Of a DNA stretch of 36,678 nt, positions 245 to 21,499 are shown piece by piece (position 1 is the first letter of the stretch; each line of letters starts with the position of its first letter). The translations under genes and the position numbers were made by a program. The DNA is from a virus: the IMG/VR virus record IMGVR_UViG_3300045988_058288, positions 1 to 36,678 of that record. One strand, given 5' to 3'. The notes beneath the pieces are model-generated. The model was not told the origin of the DNA. It ran no database searches and saw only the letters and a list, made by a program, of their open reading frames with translations.

Positions 245-1006
245 TTATGCTACTTCAATTAATGGGCCACAATTTACCCAAATTCCACCGATTTTTGCAA
301 GATTCTTTTGCACATTGACTTCATCAACACGAATTCTAGTTACATAGACAACGGCATTTGTTGTATGCAATACGTTATCGTTATATCCATCAGAATTACG
401 CACCTTATCAACTAAGCGAATTGGAAACCAACCGCCTAATGGTTCAAGGTATGCGCATAAATCGTTATTGATTCGTTTCAAACCTTGATTACCAATCTTC
501 ATTTGAACTGATGTTACGTAGCTTCCTGCGTGTAAGATTTGGTCGATTGCTTCTACAGGTTGTGGAATGCTTGGTCTAACTGCTCCTGTATTTGCGAAGC
601 ATTTAGGTCTGAATGCAGTATCAAAGGTTGCATAATAAGGCAATTTAATCAAATTGAATCCCCCACCTTTTCCACCTTGGTTTTGGCCCAAAAACCATCC
701 TTGCTTTCCGTCAATATCAGAATCAAAAATAGCAATATGACTGTATGGTGTCCATCCTGCTACTTCTTTAAAGACTGCGATATCTCCGGGTTGCATGATT
801 GAGACCTCATTACAATAGTTTAAGATACCATTTGTTTTTCGATTGTTCCAAATGTCCTTAACAAATTTACTTGTTGTGCAATGAATAGCTTGATAGCCTA
901 AATCAATCATGTACTTTGCGAATCCGTCCCAACACTGCGGTCCATAGTATCCATCAATGTCGAATGCTTTGCCTAATACGGCTTTTTTGAAATTTTGATA
1001 ATTTAT
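245..1006 (-). CDS. Endolysin: N-terminal CHAP peptidase domain plus C-terminal cell-wall-binding-like domain; proposed ATA start
   Basis: The ORF track begins at M (910), but the frame stays open up to 1021. The upstream stretch encodes NYQNFKKAVLGKAFDIDGYYGPQCWDGFAKY, which holds the CHAP catalytic-Cys motif (GPQCW). A His region (YSHIAIF) follows downstream. AGGAGGA (1015-1021), an 8-nt spacer and ATA (1004-1006) give the proposed start. Confidence 0.8.
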   Translation of the reverse strand: MNYQNFKKAVLGKAFDIDGYYGPQCWDGFAKYMIDLGYQAIHCTTSKFVKDIWNNRKTNGILNYCNEVSIMQPGDIAVFKEVAGWTPYSHIAIFDSDIDGKQGWFLGQNQGGKGGGFNLIKLPYYATFDTAFRPKCFANTGAVRPSIPQPVEAIDQILHAGSYVTSVQMKIGNQGLKRINNDLCAYLEPLGGWFPIRLVDKVRNSDGYNDNVLHTTNAVVYVTRIRVDEVNVQKNLAKIGGIWVNCGPLIEVA

Positions 1007-1031
1007 TAAAAAAATCCTCCTTTATGCACTA

Positions 1032-1040
1032 ATTATAGCA
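1032..1040 (-). promoter_or_regulatory. Putative extended -10 promoter (TGCTATAAT) for the endolysin gene
   Basis: The minus strand reads TTTTATGTGCTATAAT, placed 10 nt upstream of the endolysin Shine-Dalgarno. Confidence 0.4.
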
Positions 1041-1057
1041 CATAAAAGAGGTTTTTA

Positions 1058-1495
1058 TTACTGATATACTGAGAACATTTCTCTTAATTTATCTCTGACC
1101 ATTTCTCTTTCTTCTTGAAAGTCGCTAGATGTTTTCATTTCTTCTAAGATTCCATACATAGCGCTAAGAAAAGCTTCTAATTCACGAATAGAATTTCGTT
1201 TATCGATTTCATTGTTATCTTTTCGATATTCTTTTTTCGCTTCTATATATTTTCTGAAATGGCTATTCATCAATGCGATATTGTCATCAATTTCTGTTCC
1301 TTCAATATTTGTATCATTTGTTCTTAATGCATTTATAGCCGTTCTTCCATCATCCATAGCTAGTATTGTATCAATGTCTTTGATATTGTCTAAAGCTTGG
1401 CTCATGACTTTAAAATCTAAATCATTGTATCCTTTTTCTAGTCCTCTCATTGCTTCGGTTAAGAGGTCTAGATTCCTTTTTCTAACCTCTTGCAT
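1058..1495 (-). CDS. Hypothetical coiled-coil protein (cargo module)
   Basis: ORF track, 145 aa. ATG preceded by TAGGTG. Charged and predicted helical; no family recognised. Confidence 0.55.
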   Translation of the reverse strand: MQEVRKRNLDLLTEAMRGLEKGYNDLDFKVMSQALDNIKDIDTILAMDDGRTAINALRTNDTNIEGTEIDDNIALMNSHFRKYIEAKKEYRKDNNEIDKRNSIRELEAFLSAMYGILEEMKTSSDFQEEREMVRDKLREMFSVYQ

Positions 1496-1502
1496 GATAC
1501 AC

Positions 1503-1922
1503 CTACGCTAATTTCTTAATGATGATATTTGCATTCTGAACAGATAAATCTAAGCCACTGTTATTTCCTAGCGTGATTGTATAAGAAGCTCCACAAGGTA
1601 CTTGAATCAATGTTGCGCCACTTACATTTCCATATGCGCTTGCAGTAGCTACATTATATAGAGATTCTGTTCCTCCTACTGCTTCTCCATTCTGTTCTAA
1701 TTCTAAAGAAGCAACTCCTACCGTTGCACTTGTAATATCTGCCGTATATTCTACTTCATAGATTCCTTGTTTCGTCAATGTAAATAATCCACTTCCTACA
1801 TCATGAGCAAGCCAACCTTTACAAGCACATTGACAAGATTTCGTCCTTACTCTGTCCGTTGGAAATAATACATTTTGTCCGTTTGCTACTGTTTGTACTG
1901 CCGTTGCTATACTATTAATCAT
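1503..1922 (-). CDS. Hypothetical protein resembling the BclA C-terminal / C1q-TNF-like jelly-roll domain
   Basis: 139 aa with GGAGGAAAAGAAA-ATG. It shows the beta-rich pattern (GLFTLTKQGIYEVEYTADITS...LELEQNGEAV...ITLGNNSG...NANIIIKKL) typical of exosporium/collagen-like protein C-terminal domains. This call rests on recall only. Confidence 0.4.
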   Translation of the reverse strand: MINSIATAVQTVANGQNVLFPTDRVRTKSCQCACKGWLAHDVGSGLFTLTKQGIYEVEYTADITSATVGVASLELEQNGEAVGGTESLYNVATASAYGNVSGATLIQVPCGASYTITLGNNSGLDLSVQNANIIIKKLA

Positions 1923-2004
1923 TTTCTTTTCCTCCTATATAAAATAAATGGGTAGCCTTTCGACTACCCTATAATCCAAAGGCTATTGCCTAATCTCTTT
2001 CGAG

Positions 2005-2616
2005 CTAGATTTGGTTACATCCACAACCTGTCATATTATATGCATAATAAGGTGAGCAAGTAAGATATGCAGGTTTTGGCGTTGGTTGCAATGTGTTAAT
2101 GATATTAGCAGATTGTGCCTGTTGGCTTAATTGGAAGTTTGCAGTTAATAAATCTCTATCTCTGTCTGCTAATTTATCACGCAATTCTTGCATTGTGTTA
2201 GCATTGATTAATGCTCTTGTTGCCTCACCTTCTGAGTGGATTGCAGTGGTAATATCACACGTGTTTTTGAAACTTTGTGTGTTTACACCATCAATCGCTC
2301 TTTGTGTTGCACAACAACATTCTTGATTCTGTTGTCCTAGATTCTGCAAACCTAATTGAGTTGTGTATCTACTCTCTAAAATGTCTCTTGAATTTTGGAA
2401 ACCTTGGCTAGATACATTCTGATTTGTGTTGAACAAATCACGTTTAATAAATTCTTGATTCATTAATTCATCATTCTGTAAGTTGCCATTGTTACCCCAA
2501 TTTCCACCAAAAAGTAAGAATAAAAGGATAATCCAAATCCAATATCCTCCACCAAATTCATTGTTGTTTCTGTCTGCTAAATCGTACATTGGTTGAATAC
2601 CATTCATGCTTTCCAT
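2005..2616 (-). CDS. Hypothetical membrane-anchored, Cys-cluster protein
   Basis: 203 aa with AAAGGAGGAAATATAA-ATG. One N-terminal TM segment (YWIWIILLFLLFGG), a Q/N-rich coiled region, and CCC and CGC clusters. Confidence 0.55.
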   Translation of the reverse strand: MESMNGIQPMYDLADRNNNEFGGGYWIWIILLFLLFGGNWGNNGNLQNDELMNQEFIKRDLFNTNQNVSSQGFQNSRDILESRYTTQLGLQNLGQQNQECCCATQRAIDGVNTQSFKNTCDITTAIHSEGEATRALINANTMQELRDKLADRDRDLLTANFQLSQQAQSANIINTLQPTPKPAYLTCSPYYAYNMTGCGCNQI

Positions 2617-2640
2617 TTATATTTCCTCCTTTCAACGCAA

Positions 2641-2850
2641 TTAGCGTTTTAGCCCATATTGACTAGCCACATTTTCAAATTGTTGCTTCTGTTGTGGCGT
2701 TAAATTCCCCATCATATTACTTAGCAATACTTGGGGATTCTGCCCACTCTGCATTAATTGTTGTAATTGATTAAATGCTTGTGGGTTTCTTTGTTGCAAC
2801 ATACCCATCAACATTTGTTGAGGGCTCATCATATTCATTAAAGGATTCAC
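2641..2850 (-). CDS. Hypothetical Q/M-rich low-complexity protein
   Basis: 69 aa. GTG start 7 nt after AAAGGAGC, with a GTGA overlap onto the upstream stop. Confidence 0.5.
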   Translation of the reverse strand: MNPLMNMMSPQQMLMGMLQQRNPQAFNQLQQLMQSGQNPQVLLSNMMGNLTPQQKQQFENVASQYGLKR

Positions 2851-3272
2851 GCTTTAAGCTCCTTTCTAGGCGTTTCTTTCTCTGCTCTTGTATTTATATT
2901 ACTTCCGCCTTTTAGACCTAATATCATAGCTTCTAGCTTATCTAAGCGTTGTTCTATGCCATCTTTCTTCGGTTCTGTTTCTTCTTGGAATCTGTATTTT
3001 TTGAAACTGCCGTCTAAAGACTTCATGTAGAATACAGAATCATTTCTATCTAGCATAATACTAGGCAAACCATTCACCATCATATTCCTTGCTTCTTGCT
3101 CATTATTTACCCACTTACCATTAAAATCATTCAATGCCATGTTAGGCGTGATTTGGTTGTTAATGTTAATAGGTGGAATATTTGCCATCTGTTGAATTGT
3201 CTGTAATTGCGATTCAATCATCTGCTTTTGATTCATTAAATTGTTAATTCTGTCATTGATTGGATTATACAT
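2847..3272 (-). CDS. Hypothetical protein (first gene of the cargo module)
   Basis: The ORF track starts at GTG 3281. The ATG at 3270-3272 has the better context (AGAGGTGA plus 5 nt). Confidence 0.55.
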   Translation of the reverse strand: MYNPINDRINNLMNQKQMIESQLQTIQQMANIPPININNQITPNMALNDFNGKWVNNEQEARNMMVNGLPSIMLDRNDSVFYMKSLDGSFKKYRFQEETEPKKDGIEQRLDKLEAMILGLKGGSNINTRAEKETPRKELKA

Positions 3273-3350
3273 TTCGCTCACCTCTTTACACCTTTAATTA
3301 TATTCATGAGCAATTTCAATTTGTTTCCACATTAATATCAAATAAATGTC

Positions 3351-3375
3351 AAAAAAAAGAGGTCTTTCAACCTCT
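3351..3375 (-). terminator. Strong rho-independent terminator
   Basis: The minus strand reads AGAGGT-TGAAAG-ACCTCT followed by T8. It begins at the stop codon of the sigma-like reading frame. Confidence 0.8.
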
Positions 3376-3641
3376 TAATTCTCGTCTAGATACGTTTCTT
3401 TTTCACTGTTTTTTCTTGGTGGTAGGATTGCGCTATACTTTTCTACTTCATCATACTTGTTCTTAATCCTTTTAATAATTCTATTAACACTAGAAACACT
3501 CATATTCAATTTATCGGCTTGTTATCTAACTGTCCATCCGTATATTCTTGTTCTTAGAATCATTTCTTCATCTTTAGTTAATAAAGCTAGATTAATAAAC
3601 TCTTCTAAAATAATCTTATTCCAAGGTACTTGATTCGTCAT
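3375..3641 (-). pseudogene. Sigma-70 region-4-like HTH regulator interrupted by an in-frame TAA
   Basis: The frame from ATG 3639-3641 reads MTNQVPWNKIILEEFINLALLTKDEEMILRTRIYGWTVR, then TAA (3522-3524), then QADKLNMSVSSVNRIIKRIKNKYDEVEKY... up to TAA 3375-3377. The stop falls in the middle of the region-4-type helix-turn-helix. Confidence 0.5.
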
Positions 3642-4116
3642 TGTCTTCGTTAACGATTTTATCCGCTACTTCCAAACCTTTAGTTAATACACTAGGCACG
3701 CTATATCCACATTGTACAAGATTCTCAATAATGCTACGCACTTCATTAATACATAAAGAAGCCAATACAAACCAACCTAATAATGTGGTTACATGGAAAT
3801 CAATCCCTAGCATTTTTCCAATCTCAACCAAGAATGCACTGAATGTGAACGCAACTACAATCATAATCCAATAGCCTAGCTTTTTAAGGACTCCAATCCA
3901 TCCTTTATTGCTATTGATTTTGTGATTAATCGCCGACTTCATACATCCTGTTATATAATCTACTACATTCATAAATAAGAAGAATGCAAATAAATACCAA
4001 TGTTCACCTAATACGTATGTTAATACGGCAACGGCTACACCACCAATTGCATTCATCTTGTCTAGAAAATACATACTTCTTGTTATTTGTTTAAATCCTC
4101 CATTTTTCTTTTCTAT
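3616..4116 (-). CDS. Holin (phage_holin_4_1 / TcdE-like family); proposed ATA start
   Basis: Multi-TM protein (AIGGVAVAVLTYVLGEHWYLFAFFLFMNVVDYITG...GYWIMIVVAF...) in the lysis position. The track's GTG (4123-4125) lies inside the Shine-Dalgarno AAGGAG (4125-4130). The ATA at 4114-4116 is 8 nt downstream of that SD. Confidence 0.7.
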   Translation of the reverse strand: MEKKNGGFKQITRSMYFLDKMNAIGGVAVAVLTYVLGEHWYLFAFFLFMNVVDYITGCMKSAINHKINSNKGWIGVLKKLGYWIMIVVAFTFSAFLVEIGKMLGIDFHVTTLLGWFVLASLCINEVRSIIENLVQCGYSVPSVLTKGLEVADKIVNEDNDESSTLE

Positions 4117-4128
4117 TAAATTCACTCC

Positions 4129-5142: not shown

Positions 5143-5143
5143 A

Positions 5144-6013
5144 CTATAAACCTAAATACCTTTCATTGTAATAAACCGTACAAGCTAGGTTCGTATCTCC
5201 ATTGTCTGCCGTATATCCTATGATATTTTCACCTAACTGAATCGTCATATCATTGAATGATGATGTTCTATCAACTTTTCCGATACAATTCACACCATTC
5301 TTTTTAATCGAAATAGGTTCTGAAACTAAATCAATTTCTAACACATCACCATTGTGTAGTGTATCTAATACACGAATATATTTATCTTTATTGAATAGTT
5401 TCGGATTTGTTACCTCTCCAAATGCTTCAATAACGGCTCTACAGTATGTTTCTGTATCACCTTGATTATCAATATAGATTTCTCTAGCGAATGTAAATGT
5501 TCCAAAGTTTACGCCTGTTTCCGGTATTTCAAAATTGAACGCTAAACCTTCACCAATTTCTGCGATATTCCTTGCGAAATCATCAAATGAAAGCAATAAA
5601 GGTTGTGTACATAGAATTGTAAAGTTAAACTCTAAATCTTTGTAAATGTTAACAGTAGGCAAGCTATACGCATATAAACGACCTCTGCAATATTTCTTTT
5701 CTCCCATGTACTCAACTATCACATCAAATACATGAGAATATTGGAAGAAGCGCCGTAGCTTCTCCCTTTCTTCTCTTTTTTCTTCTAGTGAACCTTTAAA
5801 GGTAGCTTTCACGCTTCTTTCTTTCGTTGGAATACGTGAACCGATTAATCTAGCACCATTTCCGAATGCATTGTCTTGAGTTGTGTATGAAGGTGCTACA
5901 TAATCAAATCCATCTAATCCGTCACTAGATGGTATTCTCCATCTTTTGTTGTCGATTTCAAATTCTTTGCCATCATCCCTACGGACAATAACTCTTACTT
6001 TATTGATATCTAT
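5144..6013 (-). CDS. Distal tail protein (phage tail family, Dit-like); proposed ATA start
   Basis: The track starts at GTG 5812, but the frame is open up to 6058. The upstream part encodes DINKVRVIVRRDDGKEFEIDNKRWRIPSSDGLDGFDYVAPSYTTQDNAFGNGARLIGSRIPTKERS. GGAGGTG (6021-6027), a 7-nt spacer and ATA (6011-6013) give the start. The ATA overlaps the TMP stop as ATAG. Confidence 0.7.
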   Translation of the reverse strand: MDINKVRVIVRRDDGKEFEIDNKRWRIPSSDGLDGFDYVAPSYTTQDNAFGNGARLIGSRIPTKERSVKATFKGSLEEKREEREKLRRFFQYSHVFDVIVEYMGEKKYCRGRLYAYSLPTVNIYKDLEFNFTILCTQPLLLSFDDFARNIAEIGEGLAFNFEIPETGVNFGTFTFAREIYIDNQGDTETYCRAVIEAFGEVTNPKLFNKDKYIRVLDTLHNGDVLEIDLVSEPISIKKNGVNCIGKVDRTSSFNDMTIQLGENIIGYTADNGDTNLACTVYYNERYLGL

Positions 6014-8589
6014 TGAACAACACCTCCATATCCATATCTTGCTTGCATTCGCAACATTCTAGCGATTTCATCCGGACTTTGAGCTTTATTGTAGAAGTTG
6101 ATGGTCTGCCCATTGTTATTTGTCGTTACACTTGGCATAATTTGAGCCATATCTTTAGCTACGGCACGAATCCATGCTTTATTTTTTTCTAAAGGTACGA
6201 CTGCTTCTGCCCCATTACCTTCTAATAAACCGATTTGGCCACGCTTCAATACACCACCACGCTCTAGCCTAGGGATTCTTCCAATGTGAACTCCGGGAAT
6301 CTTGTTGATGATACTTATTGCACCGTTAATGCCACCGATAACACCATTTACCATTCCTTTTACACTAGAGACTAATGAACCTACTGCTCCTTCAATTCCA
6401 CCGAATACACCACCTACAAACCCTTTTAAACCGCTCCATGCATTCTGTATTCCTTGTAGAACATTTGAAATTTTATTTCCTACATTGTCCATTACGCCTT
6501 GAACTTTAGACCAAATACCATTGAATACATCAGAAACCGTAGATTTGATATTATTGAAATATTTATTGATATTATCAATAACACCTTTAACTTTGTCTCC
6601 AACTCTGTTCATTGTATCTTGAATCTTACTCCAAATATTGTTTATGATGTCCGAAACTATCTTAAATAAATTGCTTACGAATCCAATAATCGCAGTAACT
6701 ACTTCGCTAACTTTGCTCCAAATATTCTGAGCAACCGTTAATATTACAGACCAAATATTCGCTACAATTGTAGCTACAATTTGAACAATAGGCATGATAA
6801 AGCCTAGTATTGTTGCAATTGCAGTTCCGACATACGTCACAACCATAGTTATAAATGAAATGATTCCACTTACCACACTTCCAACTACTTGAAGAATAGA
6901 TGTTATTACAGGAATCATACCGATAACTGTTTGAATAATCTTCTTAATGATTGCTAGAATCGGTGGTCCTACAACGCTAAGAATCTTTTGAGCTTGGTTA
7001 ACAACATTTTGAATTGCGTTACCAATTTTACCTAAGATTTCTTTTGCGATAGGTTCAAGCGCAACTTTCATTTCATCAATAGCTTTTCTAACTTCATCAA
7101 ACGCAGGAGCTAACACTTCGGAAACTTGATTTGTTAATTCTGTAATTCCACTTGTATCAATCTTACTTAATACGCTTGAAATTACATCACCAACTTTAGC
7201 AAATCCTTGTTGAATGCCTTGAATTGCTACTGTAATTAATCCTACAATGCCTGCAAGAATAGGGGTAATAAGTTCGCCTATTGGAGTAAATGAATCAAGA
7301 AATGCGCGTCCTAAGCCACTTAAAGCGTTCTTTAAGCCACCATTTGCGATATCTTTAACTTTATCCATTGCCCCTTCTACGTCTTTATATTTATTCCCTA
7401 CTGTCGTTAAGGACTGAATGAATCCGGCGTTGAAATCTTCTCCCATTGTGCCGAAAGCCGTTGCAGATTTATTCAACTTTTCTTGTTCATTTGTAGTCTT
7501 TGAAATATCTTCTACAATCGCATTCACAACATCTTTTTGAGTTGCTCTTCCTTCTTGCCATGCCTTAAATACATCTTGTGTTTTGGTATCAAAACTATCT
7601 AAAGCTCCTTCAATAGTTCCATCAACTAACCTTGTGGTAACTTCGTTGATTGCGTCATTAACTTTATCAAGGTTATAAGCTCCACCATCTAATCCATTCT
7701 GCATTAATTGGAAATATTCATCTGCCGAATATCCTGCTTGTGCAAATTTACCGGAGTATTCTGAAATGTTGTCGCCTAACTCATCTGATTTGTTTAAACC
7801 ATTCTGAGCACCTGTAGCCATAAGGTCGAAAGCTTCTTGAGAAGTGATTCCGAATTGCTTCATTAATTGTTGAGCACCTCTAAGAGTTTCATTCTCATCC
7901 ATATCGAATGTATCTCTTAAAGTTAATAAATCCTCGGTCACGTTCTTTAGGTCAACATCACTTATGCCTTGCATTTGTTGCTTGACTCTGCCCATCATAT
8001 CGGCAACATCTGAAACATCTTCACCGAAATTGTTTGACCAAACATCACGAGCAATGTTTTTAAATTTGCTCATTTCATTGCTTGAAGCACCTGTTTGAGC
8101 TTGAAATTTAGCCATAGCGTCATCTAATTCAGTAGCTTGATTTACACCTGTCTTAATTGCTAATTCCATTCCACCGATAGCTCCTGCTACGGCAGTAACA
8201 CCAACAACACCTCCTGCGCCTAATCCTGTTAGGGTTTCAGTGATTGCAGTAGCTTCCGGACTAATATTCTGAATCTTTCCTAATAGTCCATCAAATCCAC
8301 CTTGAATTGATTCTAAGGCACTGTTTCCTACTTGTTTAAATACATCAAATTTAGAACCTGTTTCTTGCGTTTCTGTTTGTGTATTCTTTTGCTCTTCGTT
8401 TAAATCTTTAAGTTTATCTTTAATCTTTGGTGGTGCTTTTGAACCATCAGAACCTAGCTTGTCGATTGCTTTTGAAGTTTCTTTGATAGCATTTGTAGCT
8501 CCACTTGTGACTTCATGAACGGATTTCAGTCCATTCTCTAGACCACTTGTATCAATCTTTGTATCAAACTTTAATGTTCCGTCTGATAT
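6010..8589 (-). CDS. Tail tape measure protein; proposed ATA start
   Basis: The track starts at ATG 8169. A further 140 in-frame codons upstream read ISDGTLKFDTKIDTSGLENGLKSVHEVTSGATNAIKE..., a typical TMP N-terminus. An in-frame TGA sits immediately before ATA 8587-8589. GGAGGTGG (8598-8605) lies 8 nt upstream of that ATA. Confidence 0.8.
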   Translation of the reverse strand: MSDGTLKFDTKIDTSGLENGLKSVHEVTSGATNAIKETSKAIDKLGSDGSKAPPKIKDKLKDLNEEQKNTQTETQETGSKFDVFKQVGNSALESIQGGFDGLLGKIQNISPEATAITETLTGLGAGGVVGVTAVAGAIGGMELAIKTGVNQATELDDAMAKFQAQTGASSNEMSKFKNIARDVWSNNFGEDVSDVADMMGRVKQQMQGISDVDLKNVTEDLLTLRDTFDMDENETLRGAQQLMKQFGITSQEAFDLMATGAQNGLNKSDELGDNISEYSGKFAQAGYSADEYFQLMQNGLDGGAYNLDKVNDAINEVTTRLVDGTIEGALDSFDTKTQDVFKAWQEGRATQKDVVNAIVEDISKTTNEQEKLNKSATAFGTMGEDFNAGFIQSLTTVGNKYKDVEGAMDKVKDIANGGLKNALSGLGRAFLDSFTPIGELITPILAGIVGLITVAIQGIQQGFAKVGDVISSVLSKIDTSGITELTNQVSEVLAPAFDEVRKAIDEMKVALEPIAKEILGKIGNAIQNVVNQAQKILSVVGPPILAIIKKIIQTVIGMIPVITSILQVVGSVVSGIISFITMVVTYVGTAIATILGFIMPIVQIVATIVANIWSVILTVAQNIWSKVSEVVTAIIGFVSNLFKIVSDIINNIWSKIQDTMNRVGDKVKGVIDNINKYFNNIKSTVSDVFNGIWSKVQGVMDNVGNKISNVLQGIQNAWSGLKGFVGGVFGGIEGAVGSLVSSVKGMVNGVIGGINGAISIINKIPGVHIGRIPRLERGGVLKRGQIGLLEGNGAEAVVPLEKNKAWIRAVAKDMAQIMPSVTTNNNGQTINFYNKAQSPDEIARMLRMQARYGYGGVVQ

Positions 8590-8609
8590 TCAATTTGCCA
8601 CCTCCTTTT

Positions 8610-9550: not shown

Positions 9551-10057
9551 TTATACTTCTGATGTGCCTTCTGTAAATGTTACTGCTCCATCTGCTACCC
9601 TTGCAGTACCGACACGAATGTCGCTTGCAAAGTTAATGTTGAAGTTGATTTTTGAATCAACACCACTTAATGTGTCGAAAATTAATTTAGCGTCAACTTC
9701 CCACGCTTTATAGCCTTTAGTTTTGTCTCCGTCAAACATAAATACAAGTAAAGCTTTTGTATTTACTTCTTCGTTGTTTGGTACGGATTTCATCATTTGT
9801 TCGTAAATGTATTCAAAATCATCTTCACCTTTAATCATTGTTAAATCTTGCGAAATCTGAGGTGAATAACTCTTTAATGATTCTGTTGGGTTCTTATCTG
9901 CGATAAAGTCATACGTTTCAGTTTCACTATTGAATGAAATATCTAAAGTTGTAGACTTTTTAATTCGCTTGTAACCTTCTCCCATTTGTAAGAACAATCC
10001 AATCATATACTTCTTGACTGTCTGTCCTGTAGTTACTTCAGTTCCTTGAGTTGCTAT
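9551..10057 (-). CDS. Major tail protein; proposed ATA start
   Basis: The track ATG at 10006 has no Shine-Dalgarno. The frame is open from a TAA two codons before ATA 10055-10057. AAGGAG (10066-10071) lies 8 nt upstream. This adds MATQGTEVTTGQTVKKY to the N-terminus. Confidence 0.65.
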   Translation of the reverse strand: MATQGTEVTTGQTVKKYMIGLFLQMGEGYKRIKKSTTLDISFNSETETYDFIADKNPTESLKSYSPQISQDLTMIKGEDDFEYIYEQMMKSVPNNEEVNTKALLVFMFDGDKTKGYKAWEVDAKLIFDTLSGVDSKINFNINFASDIRVGTARVADGAVTFTEGTSEV

Positions 10058-10476
10058 TAATTAAGCTCCTTTCTGTATTTAATTTGAATAGTCAATGCAT
10101 ATACTGCTTGATTATCCTCATTTGTGTATAGATATAAACCACTTGAAACGGAAACATCATCACAATGTCTGTTTCCGTCTAGTTGTGGTAATTCTCCGCT
10201 TAAATTCTTTTCATCAATCCAATTTTCTAATTCTTCTAGAAAAACATTATTGTCTTGTCTTTCTGATTCAATCTGTGTATTCCTACGAGTTAGAAACGTG
10301 TAGTATTCTGTACACATTTGAGAGCCATCAATGTATGTATCTACAATTGCATTAGGTTCTTTGTACAATGCATAAGAGATAGCTTGTTGCGCTAGAACAT
10401 CCGTTTCAATACGTTCATCTATCTGTATATTTCCATAGCAATATAGCCATTGAATCAACGCTTTTGATACTGTCAT
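10057..10476 (-). CDS. Head-tail joining / tail terminator-like protein (assigned by position)
   Basis: 139 aa with GGAGGTAGTGA-ATG and an ATGA overlap onto the upstream stop. Confidence 0.5.
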   Translation of the reverse strand: MTVSKALIQWLYCYGNIQIDERIETDVLAQQAISYALYKEPNAIVDTYIDGSQMCTEYYTFLTRRNTQIESERQDNNVFLEELENWIDEKNLSGELPQLDGNRHCDDVSVSSGLYLYTNEDNQAVYALTIQIKYRKELN

Positions 10477-10835
10477 TCACTACCTCCTATCATCTGTTGT
10501 GCTTTCTTTAAGATTGTTTCTGCTCCACCATTTCGCATAGCTTTTTTAAACCAATGGTCTGTTTTACCTCCAACGAAATGAGCATTCTCTTTGTTGTAAT
10601 ACCAACGCCGAGCATATGGAGCACTTGGTCCACCTTGCTTTACTAATCCACTACCGATTTGTGTTAATCGTGTAGCCGAGTTAATCAATGCTCCTGTGTC
10701 TCTAGGCGTATAGGGTGTCATAAGCCTAATGACTTCGGAATCAATCATTTGTTGAACTCGTCCACGTTCTTCAAGTCCTCTTGATTGTTTAATTTGGGGA
10801 ATTGATTCAACATCAAGTTTGACTTTTATTCCTAT
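10473..10835 (-). CDS. HK97 gp10-family head-tail protein; probable ATA start
   Basis: The track's TTG (10853) lies inside the GGGAGG motif (10847-10852). ATA 10833-10835 overlaps the upstream stop as ATAG and lies 11 nt after the SD. The start assignment is less certain than for the other ATA genes. Confidence 0.55.
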   Translation of the reverse strand: MGIKVKLDVESIPQIKQSRGLEERGRVQQMIDSEVIRLMTPYTPRDTGALINSATRLTQIGSGLVKQGGPSAPYARRWYYNKENAHFVGGKTDHWFKKAMRNGGAETILKKAQQMIGGSE

Positions 10836-11615: not shown

Positions 11616-11756
11616 CTATTTTTTCTTTTTATCTTGAGGTTTAGCTTCCTCTTTTTCTTCTGTGGGTTCTTCTTCGTCATTTGAAAGTTTCACATATGCG
11701 TAAGGTTCAACCTTTTTATCGATAGAAGGATAACCCCATCCGATTTCCACTGCCAT
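11616..11756 (-). CDS. Small hypothetical ORF (46 aa) after the capsid gene
   Basis: Encodes MAVEIGWGYPSIDKKVEPYAYVKLSNDEEEPTEEKEEAKPQDKKKK. TAATG overlap with the MCP stop. It contains a 38-bp copy of sequence from the 10832-11251 gene. Confidence 0.3.
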   Translation of the reverse strand: MAVEIGWGYPSIDKKVEPYAYVKLSNDEEEPTEEKEEAKPQDKKKK

Positions 11757-12625
11757 TACTTCGCACTAGCAGATAAGTAAATACCTGCTACCTTATTTTG
11801 GTATACATCGACGATTCCATATTTACGATATTTTAGTACATCTGAATCTGATTCAATGTTATTGCTTGCCGGAATTACATTTGAAACGGTGTGTTTATCC
11901 CATTTCATAACGGCAGGTTTGTGAACAATCAAGAAGTTGATTACGTGTCCATCCTCCGCTTTTTCGTATCCGCCCTCTAACTCTGTGTCTTTTCCACTCA
12001 ACAATTTGATTTTTGTGTAAAAACGACTAGCGGGTACAGGAACAACCTTTGCAAATCCTTGTAAAGCTTCACGAGATTTGTAAGTGTCCAACGCCTTAAC
12101 GCTATTTAATAATGTTGGTGTTGAATACAAGATACGTTGTTCGCTAGGAACTTCATCCTCATCCATTTTAGTGATAGCCGTTAATAATGCGCTCAAGAAC
12201 TCTTCTGCACCTGTATAATCTTCTGAAACCTTTGTGATTCCTGTTGTTCCGGCAATTTTGGCGAATGTGTAAGCGTCTGCTTCCGGTGCTACCTTTGTTC
12301 GCATTAATTCTGCTCCTGCCATGCCAAATGCAATGTTCATTGATTCTGCGTTATCTTGTGTATCGACTGAGATTTTAGTACCTCGGTCATAGTCGAATGT
12401 AGCAGTTTTCCATTCTAACTTAACTGAGTTACCTGTATAACCACTGTTTCTATCGTAGTTTCCTAAACCTTTAACAGATATTTGTGGATAGATGATTTCT
12501 TTTGCATTTGCTCCTGCTCGTACCATTGTAGCGTCTGCATTTAAATCACCTGTAACTGAAGCTAACTTATATACCTCATCCAAATTTGAGACATACGTTT
12601 TAGCTAATGCAATTTCATTTGGTAT
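11756..12625 (-). CDS. Major capsid protein; proposed ATA start
   Basis: The track starts at TTG 12583. The frame opens at a TAA two codons before ATA 12623-12625. AGGAGGA (12634-12640) lies 8 nt upstream. This adds MPNEIALAKTYVSN ahead of LDEVYKLASVTGDL, a typical MCP N-terminus. Confidence 0.75.
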   Translation of the reverse strand: MPNEIALAKTYVSNLDEVYKLASVTGDLNADATMVRAGANAKEIIYPQISVKGLGNYDRNSGYTGNSVKLEWKTATFDYDRGTKISVDTQDNAESMNIAFGMAGAELMRTKVAPEADAYTFAKIAGTTGITKVSEDYTGAEEFLSALLTAITKMDEDEVPSEQRILYSTPTLLNSVKALDTYKSREALQGFAKVVPVPASRFYTKIKLLSGKDTELEGGYEKAEDGHVINFLIVHKPAVMKWDKHTVSNVIPASNNIESDSDVLKYRKYGIVDVYQNKVAGIYLSASAK

Positions 12626-14502: not shown

Positions 14503-14520
14503 TTATATACACCCCCTATA

Positions 14521-14543
14521 GAAAAAGGGCTTAAATGCCCTTT
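14521..14543 (-). terminator. Rho-independent terminator after the fibre/XkdX module
   Basis: The minus strand reads AAAGGGC-ATTTAA-GCCCTTT followed by TT. Confidence 0.6.
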
Positions 14544-14559
14544 AAAACGCTTTTAAAGC

Positions 14560-14679: not shown

Positions 14680-14680
14680 A

Positions 14681-15022: not shown

Positions 15023-15033
15023 GTCTATTACTC

Positions 15034-16032: not shown

Positions 16033-16033
16033 G

Positions 16034-16279: not shown

Positions 16280-16282
16280 ATG

Positions 16283-16891
16283 CTAACCCCACATTGTGTT
16301 TAAATCGTTTGTTGTAATCGCCGTTAATTCTGATTTCTTAACATACGCAGATAAATCAATGTCTGTATTACCAATCTTTTCATATGTCTTTGTCTCTGAA
16401 AGCCAAATATACTCATCATAGATATCTTGTGTTCCATGTGAATGTGCTAACAGATAAATTACACCATTTGAACCTGTAGCAGGTAAGCTCGTTACCTTTT
16501 CATATCTAATAGATGTAATATTACCGACTGCCGAATTAATCAACGATTGTACTTGTGATTGCGTTTGATACCCTTTAGCCGTGATAATTGACTCAACGCT
16601 CGTCGCCGACTGATATCCACTGTCATTTGTTAATTGTGATGTCTTTGTAGGCACTGTAACATCCACGGCTTTTGAGTTTGGCGTTAATTTCGTACCATTT
16701 ACCTTTACAGACTCAATCACATTCACTTGAGCACCACTTGCGATACCACTTAATTTTTGCTTTTCTGCGCTAGTATAGTCATTTGTCGATAAGCCTTTAC
16801 CACTTACGACATCAACTTTCCCACCTAACGCCGATTTAATTTTGCTAATCAAGAGCGTCAATCCACTCTTATCTAAATATTCAATAGCTAT
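16283..16891 (-). CDS. Fibre protein; proposed ATA start
   Basis: The track starts at TTG 16861. ATA 16889-16891 lies 7 nt after GGAGG (16899-16903). This adds MAIEYLDKSG ahead of LTLLISKIKSALGGKVD, a fibre-type N-terminus. The protein contains a LSTNDYTSAEKQKL motif. Confidence 0.6.
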   Translation of the reverse strand: MAIEYLDKSGLTLLISKIKSALGGKVDVVSGKGLSTNDYTSAEKQKLSGIASGAQVNVIESVKVNGTKLTPNSKAVDVTVPTKTSQLTNDSGYQSATSVESIITAKGYQTQSQVQSLINSAVGNITSIRYEKVTSLPATGSNGVIYLLAHSHGTQDIYDEYIWLSETKTYEKIGNTDIDLSAYVKKSELTAITTNDLNTMWG

Positions 16892-16902
16892 TCTTTTTCC
16901 TC

Positions 16903-17232
16903 CTATAGACTATTCCATAATTCATCTAGTTCGGTTGTTGATACAGAAGTTACAGAACCTTCTGCCATAGCTCCAATATCTTCCGGAGTATATACCGGTC
17001 TTGTTTCTGCTTTCGCCCATGTTGGAACTGTTGGGTCTATTTCTTCAACCTCTCCAATGATTTCATTACCATTTAATTTAGGCTTGTTCTTTAGCTTGTT
17101 GTAATCACTTGTACCTTCAACAAACTTCTCATCTAAGCCTAAAGTTAATGTTTCTTTATCTTCATTGATTTCAATTTGAAGCTTGTCTGATTCATCCTCT
17201 ATATTCATTTGAATATCTTTCATTAGAATCAT
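16903..17232 (-). CDS. Hypothetical structural-module protein
   Basis: 109 aa with an ATGA overlap onto the upstream stop. Confidence 0.5.
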   Translation of the reverse strand: MILMKDIQMNIEDESDKLQIEINEDKETLTLGLDEKFVEGTSDYNKLKNKPKLNGNEIIGEVEEIDPTVPTWAKAETRPVYTPEDIGAMAEGSVTSVSTTELDELWNSL

Positions 17233-17528
17233 GTAATCACTTCCTTATTCAATACTCTATATACCTTTGTTGTTTTGATAGGAGAAGCAATAGCAACTCC
17301 TCCTTTTGTAATCATTCTTAATTGAATATTACAAGTACCCTCTTTGAAATTGAGCGTTTCTTCTTGGCTTAACAACACTGAAATAGTATTCCCTTCAACG
17401 TCTAAATCACTTGATTCTTTTTTCAAGATATATCCGTTCTGTTCAAATACCACATAGATATTCTGCATTTCATTTAAATCAATATCGTTTATTGTTATTT
17501 GAATTGTTGGCGTAGTTCCTTGTCTCAT
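17229..17528 (-). CDS. Hypothetical structural-module protein
   Basis: The start is probably ATG 17526-17528, which forms an ATGA overlap with the upstream stop, rather than the track's TTG at 17549. Confidence 0.5.
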   Translation of the reverse strand: MRQGTTPTIQITINDIDLNEMQNIYVVFEQNGYILKKESSDLDVEGNTISVLLSQEETLNFKEGTCNIQLRMITKGGVAIASPIKTTKVYRVLNKEVIT

Positions 17529-18334
17529 GATTTCACCTTGTAAGTCCAATCTTTGCCTACTTCACCTTTATCAACTTCATACGCCCAATCTGCTAGAATC
17601 TCATGACCATTCTCATCTACTAGTGTTCCATCTTCTGTTAATAGAATTGTAGTGAAATGGTTCTCCATAATCATCTTTTCAATATTTGAAATTCTGTTCG
17701 ATAGCTTCCCTGCCGTATTTGCGTCTAACGTATCTTTTACAGTTTCAAACCAATCATTGAATTCTGTTCTATTTGCATTCATTTCAGATTCATTCTGAGC
17801 CTTAATTTCTTTGAATAGCTCAGTTACTTGAGTAAATAAATCCAACGATTGTACGCTTTTAATAGCGCTTGTAACTGCTCCACAACGTGTAAAATCTAAT
17901 CTTGTATCAGTAATATCTGAGCCTTTAACTTCGCTTGCATTGCCTGTTACTGTTACCGTAGCTAATACTAAATCGTAAATAGAATCACTTCTTGTGATTC
18001 CATCATTGATATCACTTGCTACTAAGGTAATGTTTCTGTATGCGTCATTATCATTCAGTCTAAGAATAATATTGTAGCTTTTAGTTGCGCTATTCTTTTC
18101 TAGTGTGATGGTTTCGTCATCTTTCTGCCAATAGAACGCTCCGTTAATATTTGCTCTTCCTGCCTTAACTGTAAGTGTTAAGCCTTGAGCTTTCTCAACC
18201 CTTAAATGGTCTGAACTAGAATCATCTACGAACACGCCATTCGTAAAATAGCTTGAGAACAATCTTCTGAAAGCGTCATATAATACTAATCTATCGCCAT
18301 TTCTTGAGACGAATGGAAAATATGTAGTTGCTAT
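17525..18334 (-). CDS. Fibre / structural protein; proposed ATA start
   Basis: The track starts at TTG 18262. The frame opens at a TGA two codons before ATA 18332-18334, and that ATA overlaps the portal stop as ATAG. This adds MATTYFPFVSRNGDRLVLYDAFRR. GAGGGGGA lies 9 nt upstream. Confidence 0.6.
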   Translation of the reverse strand: MATTYFPFVSRNGDRLVLYDAFRRLFSSYFTNGVFVDDSSSDHLRVEKAQGLTLTVKAGRANINGAFYWQKDDETITLEKNSATKSYNIILRLNDNDAYRNITLVASDINDGITRSDSIYDLVLATVTVTGNASEVKGSDITDTRLDFTRCGAVTSAIKSVQSLDLFTQVTELFKEIKAQNESEMNANRTEFNDWFETVKDTLDANTAGKLSNRISNIEKMIMENHFTTILLTEDGTLVDENGHEILADWAYEVDKGEVGKDWTYKVKS

Positions 18335-19734
18335 TCTTCGTCATCCCCCTCTCCATCATCTTGAATTTCTTCATTCAACAATTCCGTTGCTTCTTCTTCT
18401 GTGAATCCGTATTGTTTCATTAAATACATAATCTTTAATCTTGGAATATCAAATGTAAGTGCGTCATTTCTTAACGCTTGTGCCGTGCTTTGCTTATCCT
18501 CAATGTATGTATCGTCATAATCAATAGCAATGTCTAATGAATTGATATTAAGCTTTCTGCCTTGTGTTAATTCATAGAAGTATGCTATTGCTTGAATGAT
18601 ATCTTGAATATATGCAGTAGATTCTTTACGTTGTGAATTTACTTCTTTCATTGCGTCTTGATTTTCGCCGATATATTCTGTAGCCGTTACGATTCTTCCA
18701 CTTTCAAACGTGTATTTCTTCGTGCCAAATCCAAACATCATTGATAATATGCTCAATGCCGTTTCTAGTGATTGTACAACTTCTTGTGTTCTAACTGTTG
18801 GATTGTATTCCTGCCATAAAGCTTTTTCTTCCGGAAGCTTATCTCTACCTAACTGAACGAAAATCTTTTTCATTTGTGGATTCATCTTAATCTTTCCATT
18901 CTCGTCTTTCTGCATTAATGCTTCATTCACAAGAACGATTTTATCTGATTTCAACAAATCACGATTCCACATTGTCATTGTTAAATCGATTGTTTTCAAT
19001 GGAGCAATTGCGCTCCAAATCTTCGGCAAGCCGTAACCTTGCATTTGTAAGTTGTTTACCTTTGCGTTTCTCATAATTGCAAACGGTTTTACAACATCTA
19101 GTTGAACAATCTGAGCACGGTCTTTTATTTCTTCGCCTGTTTCTTTAAAGTAATGTGTTTCTGCAATATATCTTTCGTCTTGCCCTTTTAGGAACATGAC
19201 CATCACATATACTTTTTTTAGTTTCTCATAATTTACTCCAACGAAAGCCACTTCCACAATTTCATCGTTAATAACAGTTAATGGTAGGATATTCATTGAA
19301 TCACAATAGTTGATTCTGATTTCTCCCCCACTAAAACTACCATCTTCATAAATCTCGGCATTCGATACCGTCACATAAGCTCCTACTGTGCCGTTTGCAG
19401 ACATTTGCTCAACTTGCTTCCTATACATAACATCAAATCTATTCTTTGTTAGAATGTCTGAAATAATGTCATTTGTTGTACTGTCCTCAGTTGCGTTTAT
19501 ATCTAGGATTTCAATGAGGTTCGCGTCATCCTCGCATAGACGCTTTGCAAAGTCTGTTTTATCAAGCGTGTATTCCTCATTGTTCAAGGTGTATGCCGTA
19601 TGAAATTCTGTTTCGGTATTCGTATACCACTTATTACACAATTCAATAATTTCAATTGCGTTTGTATCTACATAATACCCTCTTTCGTTTAGGTAATTCT
19701 GAAACCACGGTCTACGTGTGTTAGATGTTTCTAT
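18331..19734 (-). CDS. Portal protein (SPP1 gp6-like); proposed ATA start
   Basis: The track starts at TTG 19641. The frame opens one codon before ATA 19732-19734. AGGAGG (19741-19746, minus-strand reading) lies 6 nt upstream. This adds METSNTRRPWFQNYLNERGYYVDTNAIEIIE. Confidence 0.75.
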   Translation of the reverse strand: METSNTRRPWFQNYLNERGYYVDTNAIEIIELCNKWYTNTETEFHTAYTLNNEEYTLDKTDFAKRLCEDDANLIEILDINATEDSTTNDIISDILTKNRFDVMYRKQVEQMSANGTVGAYVTVSNAEIYEDGSFSGGEIRINYCDSMNILPLTVINDEIVEVAFVGVNYEKLKKVYVMVMFLKGQDERYIAETHYFKETGEEIKDRAQIVQLDVVKPFAIMRNAKVNNLQMQGYGLPKIWSAIAPLKTIDLTMTMWNRDLLKSDKIVLVNEALMQKDENGKIKMNPQMKKIFVQLGRDKLPEEKALWQEYNPTVRTQEVVQSLETALSILSMMFGFGTKKYTFESGRIVTATEYIGENQDAMKEVNSQRKESTAYIQDIIQAIAYFYELTQGRKLNINSLDIAIDYDDTYIEDKQSTAQALRNDALTFDIPRLKIMYLMKQYGFTEEEATELLNEEIQDDGEGDDEE

Positions 19735-19737
19735 TTC

Positions 19738-21072
19738 TTACCTCCTTAAATCTATATATCCACTATGGGTTATAAATGTATAGCAGAACGAATCCCAATC
19801 ATCATTGATATTGTTTACGTTCTCATCTTTTGGAATGTCTTTCTTTTCATCCCATACTAATTCGCTCAATGCGTTTATTAAGTTCTTACAGTGTTCTTCT
19901 ATCTTTAACCTACCTGTTACAAGTAAGCTATCAACCGTTATAGGACGGTCTGTAAGCTCATTCTTCTTAACCGGTGCAATTATACTACCATCTAATCCTT
20001 CGGCGTAAAAATAAGCTCTAAGCGTGTTTATCAACGTATTAGAAGCACTGTCCGGAAATATCCATTCTACATATCCGTAACATTCAATACAACGCTTATA
20101 GAACCTTACAAACGCTTTGCAGAACTTTGTTGCGTCTATTGCATTTGACTTTGCCATATCTCCCTCATCGAGCGCCCACACACAATCCCAATCATTTGTG
20201 AATCCTGTTAAGTGCCATGAGTACTTTGAACCATTGTCTCCAAAGTCAACGCCTATGATTAAATGACTAAACCTTTTTCCTTGTTCTTTCATCTTCTCTT
20301 TTAAATGTTGATACTTGAATAAATAAGGTTTGCAGTTATTAGCAAAATAAGGGAACACAAGTCCTTCGGCTTCTTCCCTTTGCCCTTTTATATCTCTTTT
20401 GTAATAAACGCTATTCTTATCGTATGATTTCAAGACCGTTCTTATCTGCTCATCACTCAAAGAATAATTATCAACTAAGGTGGTATGCCCATAGTTGTAG
20501 CCATATGTAGAATCTTTATTCTGTTGCTCCTCATGATATCTCAAGAAATCTGTGTAATACCAATGATTCTTGCCTTTGGGGTTTAAATCATGAAATATCT
20601 TTCGATTGCTTGAAGCTATCGTTCTATCCATCACTTCTTGTAGAAACTCAATGCAACAAAGATTTGCTTCTGTTACATATGCCATTCCATATGAATAACC
20701 ATGTATCGCATTCTCTGAGCCTTTCTTAGCGCCACCGGCAAAGAATACAACCTTTTCTCCTACCTTTGTATTGATGTAATAACAATCCTTGCCTTCATAC
20801 TTCCCTACCTTGAACCTATTCGCAAAGTAGTTTTGTAAGCCGTATCCGTTACAATCTCCAATATTCACACGTGCAGATGATGTATCTGTTCCTGCTATCA
20901 AATGGAATTTATCCGGATGTGTTTCTAAAGCGATACAGAAAGCGTATGTGTTGAGTACGTTCTTTCCTCCACGTTTACCACCTTCTAAAACATTAAGCCA
21001 TGAATCAAATGTTTTTTTAAGATAAGTTAATTGTTTTTGATTGAATGGTGCAGGCTTATTCAAAGTCTTCAA
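19738..21072 (-). CDS. terL: Terminase large subunit
   Basis: 444 aa with a Walker-A-like GGKRGGKN and C-terminal nuclease-type acidic motifs. TTG start, coupled to terS by a 17-nt overlap. Confidence 0.85.
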   Translation of the reverse strand: MKTLNKPAPFNQKQLTYLKKTFDSWLNVLEGGKRGGKNVLNTYAFCIALETHPDKFHLIAGTDTSSARVNIGDCNGYGLQNYFANRFKVGKYEGKDCYYINTKVGEKVVFFAGGAKKGSENAIHGYSYGMAYVTEANLCCIEFLQEVMDRTIASSNRKIFHDLNPKGKNHWYYTDFLRYHEEQQNKDSTYGYNYGHTTLVDNYSLSDEQIRTVLKSYDKNSVYYKRDIKGQREEAEGLVFPYFANNCKPYLFKYQHLKEKMKEQGKRFSHLIIGVDFGDNGSKYSWHLTGFTNDWDCVWALDEGDMAKSNAIDATKFCKAFVRFYKRCIECYGYVEWIFPDSASNTLINTLRAYFYAEGLDGSIIAPVKKNELTDRPITVDSLLVTGRLKIEEHCKNLINALSELVWDEKKDIPKDENVNNINDDWDSFCYTFITHSGYIDLRR

Positions 21073-21442
21073 TTCTTCTTTCTTTTGCTACATCTGTAAT
21101 CATAGCTTTATTAATTGCATTTACTTCTGAAGCGTCAAAATGTGTTTCTACCTTATCTGCTTGACCTAGGAATTGTTTTCCTAAGAAAATAGCCATTGCA
21201 GGACTCTTTGAAGCAAGTTTAAATTGCGCTCTTCGTAACGAAATTCTTCCTTGTGCGCCGAACCTTTTTAAACATTCGGAGAAATCAGTTCCATATGTAC
21301 GTTTACACCAATTTGATAATGTCTTATCTGTCGTGTTAAAAAAGTAGCATACTTCTGCTTGTGTGCATTGAATAGCTAACAATTTTTCAAATTCTTCTTT
21401 GTCGAAATCCTTGTTAGGCCTTCCAACTTTTCCATTCGCTAT
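21056..21442 (-). CDS. terS: Terminase small subunit (HTH); proposed ATA start
   Basis: The track starts at TTG 21382. The upstream frame reads TAG AAA GGG GAT GTA ATA ATA GCG..., which adds MANGKVGRPNKDFDKEEFEKL. The start is ATA at 21440-21442 or 21443-21445, after the AAAGGGGA motif. Confidence 0.7.
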   Translation of the reverse strand: MANGKVGRPNKDFDKEEFEKLLAIQCTQAEVCYFFNTTDKTLSNWCKRTYGTDFSECLKRFGAQGRISLRRAQFKLASKSPAMAIFLGKQFLGQADKVETHFDASEVNAINKAMITDVAKERRIEDFE

Positions 21443-21499
21443 TATTACATCCCCTTTCTATATTTATCACTCAATATTTTTGGTGTACAATGTTCCAAA

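Follow-up and report, generated by a model that had tools for sequence, protein, structure and literature searches.

An initiator-type tRNA with anticodon UAU and a set of matching ATA start codons in a temperate phage of the human gut

We analysed the viral record IMGVR_UViG_3300045988_058288, whose 36,678 nucleotides (hereafter "the window", i.e. the whole stretch of DNA) make up the 36.7-kb genome of a temperate siphovirus-type phage. As judged by comparison with related phages, at least 13 of its genes start at ATA, and the genome carries a tRNA gene, at 21904..21979 on the minus strand, which derives from an initiator tRNA and bears the anticodon UAU. The comparisons also establish, at the level of contigs, that this tRNA and the ATA starts co-occur across lineages. 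The reading that we favour, with a probability of about 0.8, is that the phage encodes a private second initiator tRNA and that at least 13 genes were switched from ATG to ATA to match it.

Start codons in the window

Nearly all genes of the window are on the minus strand, the early genes running from 33.7 to 22.0 kb and the late genes from ~21.8 kb down to position 245. A preliminary description of this DNA had listed eleven late genes starting at ATA behind a Shine-Dalgarno (SD) sequence. All eleven codons were found where it had placed them (as TAT on the plus strand), each with an SD-like purine run 5-10 nt upstream. The description had also put the first canonical start codon deep inside these genes, and in nine of them this codon indeed lies 10-140 codons downstream. 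In nine of the 13 ATA genes (terS, portal, major capsid, tape measure, Dit, endolysin and those starting at 18334, 16891 and 10057) there is no in-frame ATG, GTG or TTG between the upstream stop codon and the ATA. The count of eleven was too low, as at least two more genes, starting at 29179 and 22523, have to be added. The confinement of ATA to the late genes was therefore too strict a claim, the early replication initiator also being an ATA gene, but the late enrichment stands (11/31 late genes vs 2/34 early genes, p = 0.004). Altogether, ATA genes are about a fifth of the genes of the phage.

The ATA genes, all on the minus strand, are here followed in the direction of transcription through the late region. 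The small terminase gene terS (21056..21445) has a tandem ATA, at 21445-21443 or 21442-21440, behind the SD AAAGGGGA, and the portal protein gene (18331..19734) starts at 19734-19732 behind the SD AAGGAGGT. The next gene (17525..18334, ATA at 18334-18332, overlapping the portal stop codon as ATAG) had been labelled as fibre-like; its product matches the head-protein family phrog_1220. Similarly, the label of fibre did not hold for the product of 16283..16891 (ATA at 16891-16889, ATG here in some relatives), whose sole match is phrog_24103, a family without known function. They are followed by the major capsid protein (MCP) gene (11756..12625, ATA at 12625-12623, SD AAGGAGG), by the gene of a minor head or connector-type protein of phrog_556 (10473..10835, ATA at 10835-10833, overlapping the upstream stop codon as ATAG) and by that of a phrog_3099 protein in the position of the major tail protein (9551..10057, ATA at 10057-10055). 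The tape measure protein (TMP) gene (6010..8589) has its ATA at 8589-8587, right behind an in-frame TGA, and its first canonical start 140 codons further on. The last three are the distal tail protein (Dit) gene (5144..6013, ATA at 6013-6011, overlapping the TMP stop codon as ATAG), the holin gene (3616..4116, ATA at 4116-4114, ATG at the corresponding position in three relatives) and the CHAP endolysin gene (245..1006, ATA at 1006-1004).

The two early genes are also on the minus strand. The replication initiation protein gene (28433..29179) has its ATA at 29179-29177, with the SD GGAGGTG 6 nt upstream. An open reading frame (ORF) of 64 amino acids (22329..22523) has a probable ATA start at 22523-22521, with the SD AGGAGGTG 6 nt upstream, and is ambiguous because an ATG follows two codons downstream. 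A 42-aa ORF at 32806 is a possible further case.

Some of these starts have a particular arrangement. At three of them (18331-18334, 10832-10835 and 6010-6013) the ATAG overlap with the preceding stop codon corresponds, for ATA, to the ATGA overlap known from translational coupling, and the start at 10057 shares one base with a TAA (TAATA). The holin frame (4074-4116) contains a second ATA at 4086, with GGAGG 10 nt upstream, plus an ATG at 4074; this double start may be a dual-start holin/antiholin arrangement using two initiation channels.

Starts were also counted in an SD-anchored way. Precisely, we considered as a start any candidate codon that had an SD 5-10 nt upstream, was followed by 70 or more codons and lay no further than 30 codons from the opening of the frame. 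The window gave ATG 27, ATA 11, GTG 5 and TTG 2, and the ATA/ATG counts were 5/83 and 20/302 in two sets of related phages without the UAU tRNA. The assertion that eleven ATA starts are not noise is thus well founded.

Support for ATA as the true start

More than 35 related contigs, which come from several metagenomes, keep the motif 'A ATA', with varying flanking bases and spacers. In 35 close relatives the MCP gene starts with ATA while its second codon differs (CCA, GCA, GCG). The variation in the segments from the ATA to the first canonical codon is distributed over the three codon positions as 72:44:208 (chi-square p = 1e-31), and therefore these extensions are coding in the ATA frame. 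SD duplexes are stronger in the ATA genes, a difference which is partly circular, as SD strength had served to pick the starts.

The N-terminal extensions had been taken for genuine protein sequence, with the CHAP domain as an example, and both the family profiles and the domain boundaries agree with this. The profiles align from residue 2-10 of most ATA-defined proteins, and PHROG or Pfam profiles reach the ATA-defined N-termini of the MCP, the head protein, the 16891 protein, the endolysin, the TMP and the 10057 protein. In particular, residues 3-288 of the MCP align to profile positions 3-294/297, and the alignments begin at residue 3 and profile position 8 for the head protein, at 4 and 4 for the 16891 protein, and at 2 and 5 for the endolysin. 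The CHAP domain starts at residue 18 of the endolysin, 15 residues ahead of the first ATG. The expectation that homologues have Met at the aligned position was borne out for the MCP, since an ATG is aligned to its ATA in 44 of the 46 distant homologues. This projection of start codons onto distant homologues was informative for the MCP and one TMP only, because elsewhere there were N-terminal indels or no homologue in the loci. Among the close relatives, the same codon is ATG in a few cases and in three genes (16891, 10057 and holin), as had been envisaged for related prophages.

These data bear directly on the explanation that the ATA starts are an artefact, either from G>A changes introduced at start codons by sequencing or assembly, or because the internal canonical codons are the true starts. 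In its favour, public gene callers do give shortened versions of the proteins (e.g. TMP 719 aa, portal 436 aa). However, more than 60 contigs, obtained from many samples and with many assemblers, keep the ATA codons. The extensions, moreover, are coding and fit the family profiles, and an internal start would truncate the CHAP domain. As a special case, we considered a motif-wide G>A miscalling or a base-modification artefact and rejected it: on the coding strand AATG is as common as AATA, and this lack of depletion, together with the origin of the contigs from many samples and assemblers, means that no base-calling artefact is at work. We regard the artefact explanation as effectively refuted.

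As a separate observation, the public gene calls for L133 and L135-L144, contigs of public assemblies, shorten the ATA-started proteins and leave unexplained gaps. The lengths called are 719-735 aa for the TMP in most contigs (859 from the ATA), 436 for the portal protein, 275 for the MCP and 187-234 for Dit.

The UAU tRNA and its initiator-type features

The tRNA gene was found as a match to Rfam RF00005 (43.2 bits, the gathering threshold being 29) that spans 21979-21907 of the minus strand, and extends with an encoded CCA end to 21904. Its sequence is AGCAGGA-UA-GAGC-AGUAGUA-GCUC-A-CUAGU-CUUAUUA-GCUAG-AGGUC-GAAGAG-UGCAAUU-CCUUC-UCCUGCA-A-CCA. The anticodon, UAU, is the exact complement of AUA and lies in the loop CUUAUUA, with U at position 37. 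When 11 distinct variants were aligned, 95% of the cells of the cloverleaf were paired and nine pairs had compensatory changes, a result equalled by none of 500 shuffles (0/500). ARAGORN did not report any tRNA in the window, probably because of a bulged nucleotide in the T stem; it also misses the other variants with this bulge, and it calls the variants of relatives with a canonical T arm tRNA-Ile (tat).

We compared the features of this tRNA by alignment with annotated tRNAs of E. coli K-12 (metZ as initiator; metT/U, ileX, ileV, alaV and glnX/W as elongators), and they indicate that it is derived from an initiator. Positions 1 and 72 do not form a Watson-Crick pair in any variant: they are A.A in the window and its clade, C.A in L154/L132, G.A in L168 and G.G in the CAU sister clade described below. 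The mismatch is constant but of varying kinds, which indicates selection for non-pairing. The corresponding bases are paired in the Met, Ile, Ile2, Ala and Gln elongators of E. coli. The pair A11:U24 is diagnostic of initiators, elongators having Y11:R24; it is found in all phage variants and in metZ, whereas metT/U, ileX, ileV, alaV and glnX/W have C:G. An unpaired 1:72 and A11:U24 are thus common to the phage tRNA and tRNAfMet and occur in none of the elongators compared. G2:C71, C3:G70 and A73 are invariant in all phage variants, and within the E. coli set they are also present in the Met and Ile2 elongators. The 1:72 mismatch, together with 2:71 and 3:70, is the formylase determinant (PMC5389676). 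Identity to E. coli tRNAfMet is 64-77%, and to the Met and Ile elongators 47-56%. In the D stem (GAGC/GCUC) and the variable loop (AGGUC) there is no difference from metZ.

The phage tRNA also differs from bacterial tRNAfMet. It has UAU instead of the CAU anticodon, U37 (unusual, and invariant across the phage tRNA family) instead of A37, and a short D loop; it keeps only one or two of the three G:C pairs of the anticodon stem, with U31.G39; the T stem is bulged in the variant of the window; and it is encoded by a phage, presumably alongside the initiator of the host. A canonical initiator anticodon arm with UAU (TCGGGCTTATAACCCGA) was also sought in viral contigs, and its nine matches were all coincidences within coding sequences and not tRNAs.

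The main competing explanation is that this is an ordinary elongator tRNA-Ile(UAU) which serves a codon rare in the host, and that host tRNAfMet initiates at the ATA codons with low efficiency, which might serve, for instance, to limit the amounts of these proteins or to make them depend on the level of IF3. Codon supplementation is in fact the standard account of phage tRNAs (discussed in PMC10264068), ATA represents 8% of the Ile codons in the host flanks vs 15-26% in the phage, and the ARAGORN label of the canonical-T-arm variants is that of an elongator. Nevertheless, among the traits of an elongator tRNA-Ile(UAU), i.e. a paired 1:72, Y11:R24 and a purine (t6A) at position 37, besides the anticodon, only the anticodon fits. 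Every variant has instead the unpaired 1:72 (in three mismatch forms) and the A11:U24 of tRNAfMet, and the tRNA is homologous to the CAU initiator tRNA of the sister clade. The distribution of the codon does not suit this explanation either, as the ATA starts are on the proteins in greatest demand, those of the major capsid and tail, for which weak initiation would be ill-suited, and the late genes, which bear the ATA starts, have fewer internal ATA codons than the early genes. Relatives without the tRNA, moreover, have no ATA starts above background. We consider the elongator explanation unlikely.

Co-occurrence of the tRNA with ATA starts

We examined the co-occurrence by means of a covariance model of the tRNA and the SD-anchored start spectrum. 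The hint in the preliminary description that ATA starts co-vary with the tRNA was confirmed: the late regions of the UAU clade have 295 ATA and 282 ATG starts. Of the two sets of relatives mentioned above, the one with 5 ATA and 83 ATG starts is a sister clade (MCP 55% identical) that has a homologous CAU initiator tRNA (65-68 bits to the covariance model), and its five ATA starts are one dubious site. The other (20 ATA, 302 ATG) consists of more distant relatives without such a tRNA and is at background level. The CAU tRNA of the sister clade (L035:9260-9334, also in L036-L040 and L060) lies ~740 nt upstream of the MCP gene, which starts with ATG there. This tRNA combines the mismatch G1.G72 with A11:U24 and the three G:C pairs, lacks an encoded CCA, and is likely the ancestor state of the UAU tRNA.

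Among the contigs with a close MCP, the tRNA was found by exact pattern in 29 of 35, and most of the others end short of the region; L017 and L031 may span it, yet they matched none of the tRNA patterns. When contigs were sampled via the neighbouring DUF6275 gene, the tRNA was present in 20/20. More divergent lineages agree. L154/L132, with an MCP of 54% identity and a C1xA72 tRNA, have ATA at terS, portal, MCP and three more genes, and L168, a contig of 43% GC with a G1xA72 tRNA, has an ATA start at the portal gene.

Outside this phage family, a looser initiator-like UAU pattern matched five bacterial genomes (Arthrobacter, a Thermoleophilia metagenome-assembled genome (MAG), a Terracidiphilus MAG, an Arsenophonus endosymbiont, in which it is a canonical tRNAfMet with C34U, and a Collinsella MAG) and one high-GC viral contig (L130/L131). 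The tRNAs at L128:4492-4568, L127:4515-4591, L125:2339-2414, L129:93-169 and L130:4204-4280 have A at position 37 (C in L127), not U. We rejected them as evidence of the same system, as they lack U37 and no ATA starts were seen in the contexts examined; they could be mutated copies or something else.

The base preceding the start codon

A is present at position -1 in all 13 ATA starts of the window, vs 24/52 canonical starts (p = 2.9e-4), in 284 of the 295 ATA sites across the clade, and in all the ATA starts of L154 and L168. The mRNA base at -1 faces position 37 of the tRNA, here U. A four-base AAUA:UAUU interaction, which would strengthen a duplex made of A-U pairs only, is therefore plausible, and extended codon-anticodon pairing at -1/37 has reportedly been described in older E. 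coli work.

This complementarity, like the match of anticodon and codon, would be a coincidence if ATA initiation were a trait of the host (relaxed start selection in Holdemanella or Erysipelotrichaceae), or due to a further phage factor with IF3 or the ribosome as its target, with the tRNA being incidental. In favour of this explanation, Erysipelotrichia are related to Mollicutes, in which unusual initiator tRNAs occur (PMC5389676), and IF3 mutations raise AUA initiation, but in E. coli they do so 1.5-2 fold only (PMC9723500). In the host DNA flanking the prophage, the SD-anchored ATA/ATG count is 0/13, although the sample is small. As for a phage factor, annotation of the phage proteins with PHROG and Pfam did not reveal any translation-factor-like gene. 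Among candidates for a TilS-like enzyme, a deaminase and an IF3-like protein, which were also sought, there was only a weak match to a PP-loop protein at 27725-28429, with nothing linking it to the tRNA. A host trait or a separate phage factor is, in our opinion, very unlikely.

Proposed mechanism

The CAU initiator tRNA of the sister clade implies that the phage lineage had an initiator tRNA beforehand. In one branch, its anticodon would have become UAU, with U37 and a changed 31:39 pair, and the start codons of many genes would then have drifted, or have been selected, from ATG to ATA. The tRNA would have its own transcription site where the early and late regions meet, and would be charged by a host synthetase, most likely IleRS. 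With its acceptor-stem features it is expected to be accepted for formylation and to be used poorly by EF-Tu.

IF3 senses complementarity and not codon identity. The tRNA would enter the P site on an SD-positioned AUA, where full codon-anticodon complementarity would pass IF3 proofreading, and U37 would probably pair with the A at -1, offsetting three weak A-U pairs. The proteins would probably start with (formyl-)isoleucine, and translation of the capsid, portal, tail, tape-measure, terS, holin, endolysin and replication-initiator genes would need the phage tRNA and not host tRNAfMet. As to the purpose, the level of the tRNA may gate or time the proteins of structure, lysis and replication, or the phage may gain independence from host tRNAfMet, e.g. 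against toxins that target it.

The components of this scheme have parallels. Classical work on anticodon-mutant initiator tRNAs is said to come from the RajBhandary and Schulman laboratories. Engineered anticodon mutants of the initiator start translation at the complementary codon with the amino acid specified by the anticodon (bioRxiv 10.1101/2021.05.25.445580). On the ribosomes of B. subtilis, a UAU anticodon without modification shows strong binding to AUA and weak binding to AUG, and a UAU tRNA charged with isoleucine sustains the decoding of AUA as this amino acid in vivo (PMC3919564). With the normal initiator, AUA is disfavoured by IF3 (PMC9723500).

In its full form the proposal describes a two-channel initiation code in some gut phages, in which the UAU tRNA reads the four-base AAUA by means of its anticodon and U37, starts proteins with (formyl-)isoleucine, makes a defined set of essential genes (structural, packaging, lysis and replication) translatable only with the phage tRNA, and evolved from a phage-borne CAU initiator. 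Such a code would be nature's equivalent of the orthogonal initiation built by engineers. Taken as a whole, we put this forward tentatively and would rate it at somewhat less than even odds.

Several points weigh against the existence of a private initiator tRNA. The support is wholly comparative, and the co-occurrence was drawn from one broad group of related phages, hence from few independent evolutionary events. Near the UAU initiator-like tRNAs of L127, L128 and L130, the three contexts examined outside the family, there are no ATA starts. Many late genes keep ATG starts, a split for whose purpose the proposal does not account. In-frame ATA occurs 11-20 times per 1000 codons in the phage vs 7 in the host flanks, so that a role in elongation is possible.

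The other points concern the tRNA molecule. In the window, the pairs 29:41/30:40/31:39 are A:U / G:C / U.G and not the three G:C pairs of initiators, and the anticodon is not the CAU of bacterial initiators. Other variants have G:C / G:C / U.G, with C:G at 31:39 in L091, and G30:C40 is invariant. G29:C41 with G30:C40 is present in 6 of 35 IMG/VR contigs of the clade of the window and in the L149/L150-type, L154/L132 and L168 variants, the two versions of the anticodon stem being connected by three compensatory double changes. Natural au/GC/gu variants of the G:C pairs exist in mycoplasmas (PMC5389676). The third pair of the window is Y:R, unlike these natural R:Y variants. In E. coli an anticodon stem of this kind would weaken P-site selection. 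The bulged T arm, G at position 55 and the short D loop cast some doubt on how well the window variant folds; variants L149, L150, L154 and L168 have a canonical T arm. Finally, U37 and U34 fit the known identity sets of IleRS and MetRS poorly, and the charging enzyme is uncertain.

Surroundings of the tRNA gene

The tRNA gene is located between the hairpin that closes the early region and the first late ORF/terS. On the minus strand, 6 nt upstream of tRNA position 1, direct reading revealed an extended -10-like element, TGcGATAAT (21986..21994), with a similar TGtAATAAT in relatives; a consensus scan did not report it. This element may be the tRNA's own promoter, going by its position and motif. 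A terminator-like 7-bp G+C-rich hairpin followed by TTTTTT (21997..22019, minus strand by direct reading, whereas the scan gave the hairpin on the opposite strand) stands between the last of the early genes and the tRNA. A further terminator-like hairpin lies between the tRNA and the first late ORF (21803..21821, minus strand), which suggests a short constitutive transcript and antitermination into the late operon. For the idea of a leaderless tRNA, with A1 as the transcription start, the spacing of the -10-like element fits the clade of the window and not L132, and we did not retain it.

Host and genomic context

Prophages identical to the window were found in human-gut assemblies (ENA contigs), inserted between rplQ and an O-methyltransferase gene on one side and ecfA-ecfA-ecfT-truA-rplM-rpsI on the other. 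The flanking L13, S9, TruA and methyltransferase proteins match Holdemanella (Erysipelotrichaceae) proteins exactly; therefore the host of the prophage is Holdemanella, a gut bacterium. A scan of GTDB genomes through the portal for the prophage host and a megablast search against GenBank phages for close relatives gave no match. The chromosomal sites of related prophages differ: when L137:13162-14472, L140:12873-14183 and L138:13417-18391 were compared, some lay by ecfA/rplM-rpsI downstream of rplQ, and others adjoined the gene of a CCA-adding enzyme (PolyA_pol family).

The window also contains an integrase gene (35001-36098) and a divergent repressor pair (33.8-34.8 kb). In the early region, the weak PP-loop match at 27725-28429 is PAPS-reductase-like, and a Sequestin-domain protein and a dUTPase_2 protein are encoded as well (listed with it at 27725-28429, 27163-27420 and 26634-27149).

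Comparison of 19738-21445 of the window with L031:534-2185 and with L005 shows that the terminase module is mosaic. In many close relatives the terS/TerL pair is only ~42% and ~64% identical to that of the window, and their alternative TerL is closer to the TerL of L154 and L168 (~73%). The alternative terS likewise opens with ATA (GGGGGTATTAAA ATA GCA). The first 5.2 kb of L017 (L017:1-5200) do not resemble the window and lack homologues of the portal and terminase genes, the remainder of this locus being 85-92% identical; this segment is either a different module or part of a chimeric contig.

Relation to known systems

Full-text literature searches returned engineered orthogonal initiators, mitochondrial AUA initiation and stop-codon recoding in phages. 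A natural initiator tRNA of bacteria or phages that serves start codons of its own through an anticodon other than CAU was not among the results. The engineered initiators (the amber initiator, i-tRNA(AAC)) follow the same principle, a changed anticodon moving initiation to the complementary codon, but they are man-made and were used with single reporter genes, whereas the phage pair is apparently natural, concerns ~1/5 of the genes and has extra changes (U37, 31:39). In the gut phages that recode stop codons with suppressor tRNAs, a phage tRNA likewise alters codon reading, and the codon affected is found mostly in late genes for structure and lysis. There a stop codon is reassigned in elongation; here the change concerns the start codon and initiation, and in-frame ATA is presumably still read as Ile.

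In mitochondria AUA is likewise a regular start codon, but one tRNA-Met, through a modification of C34, serves AUG as well as AUA in both initiation and elongation, whereas the phage adds a separately encoded UAU initiator. The same anticodon, likely AUA-specific with unmodified U34, occurs in the elongator tRNA-Ile(UAU) that some bacteria and tilS suppressors of B. subtilis possess (PMC3919564); the phage tRNA differs from this elongator in its initiator-type acceptor and D arms and in U37. On present comparisons, a natural private ATA start code would therefore be categorically new in nature, although built of known parts.

Conclusions

Some consequences hold already. Standard gene callers shorten or miss ~1/5 of the genes of these phages (TMP 719 vs 859 aa; portal, MCP, Dit, endolysin and others), and tRNA finders miss the tRNA or name it tRNA-Ile. 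If the proposed system is true, it would be the first case in nature of an initiator tRNA that is dedicated to a codon other than AUG and has a set of starts to itself, and the initiation step of the genetic code would be reassignable in nature, beyond sense and stop codons. It would also provide synthetic biology with an evolved orthogonal initiation pair, ready for use and with design hints (U37 with A at -1, the changed 31:39 pair, a strong SD). For the biology of these phages, the finding makes it testable why phages carry initiator tRNAs and whether phage translation can be independent of host tRNAfMet.

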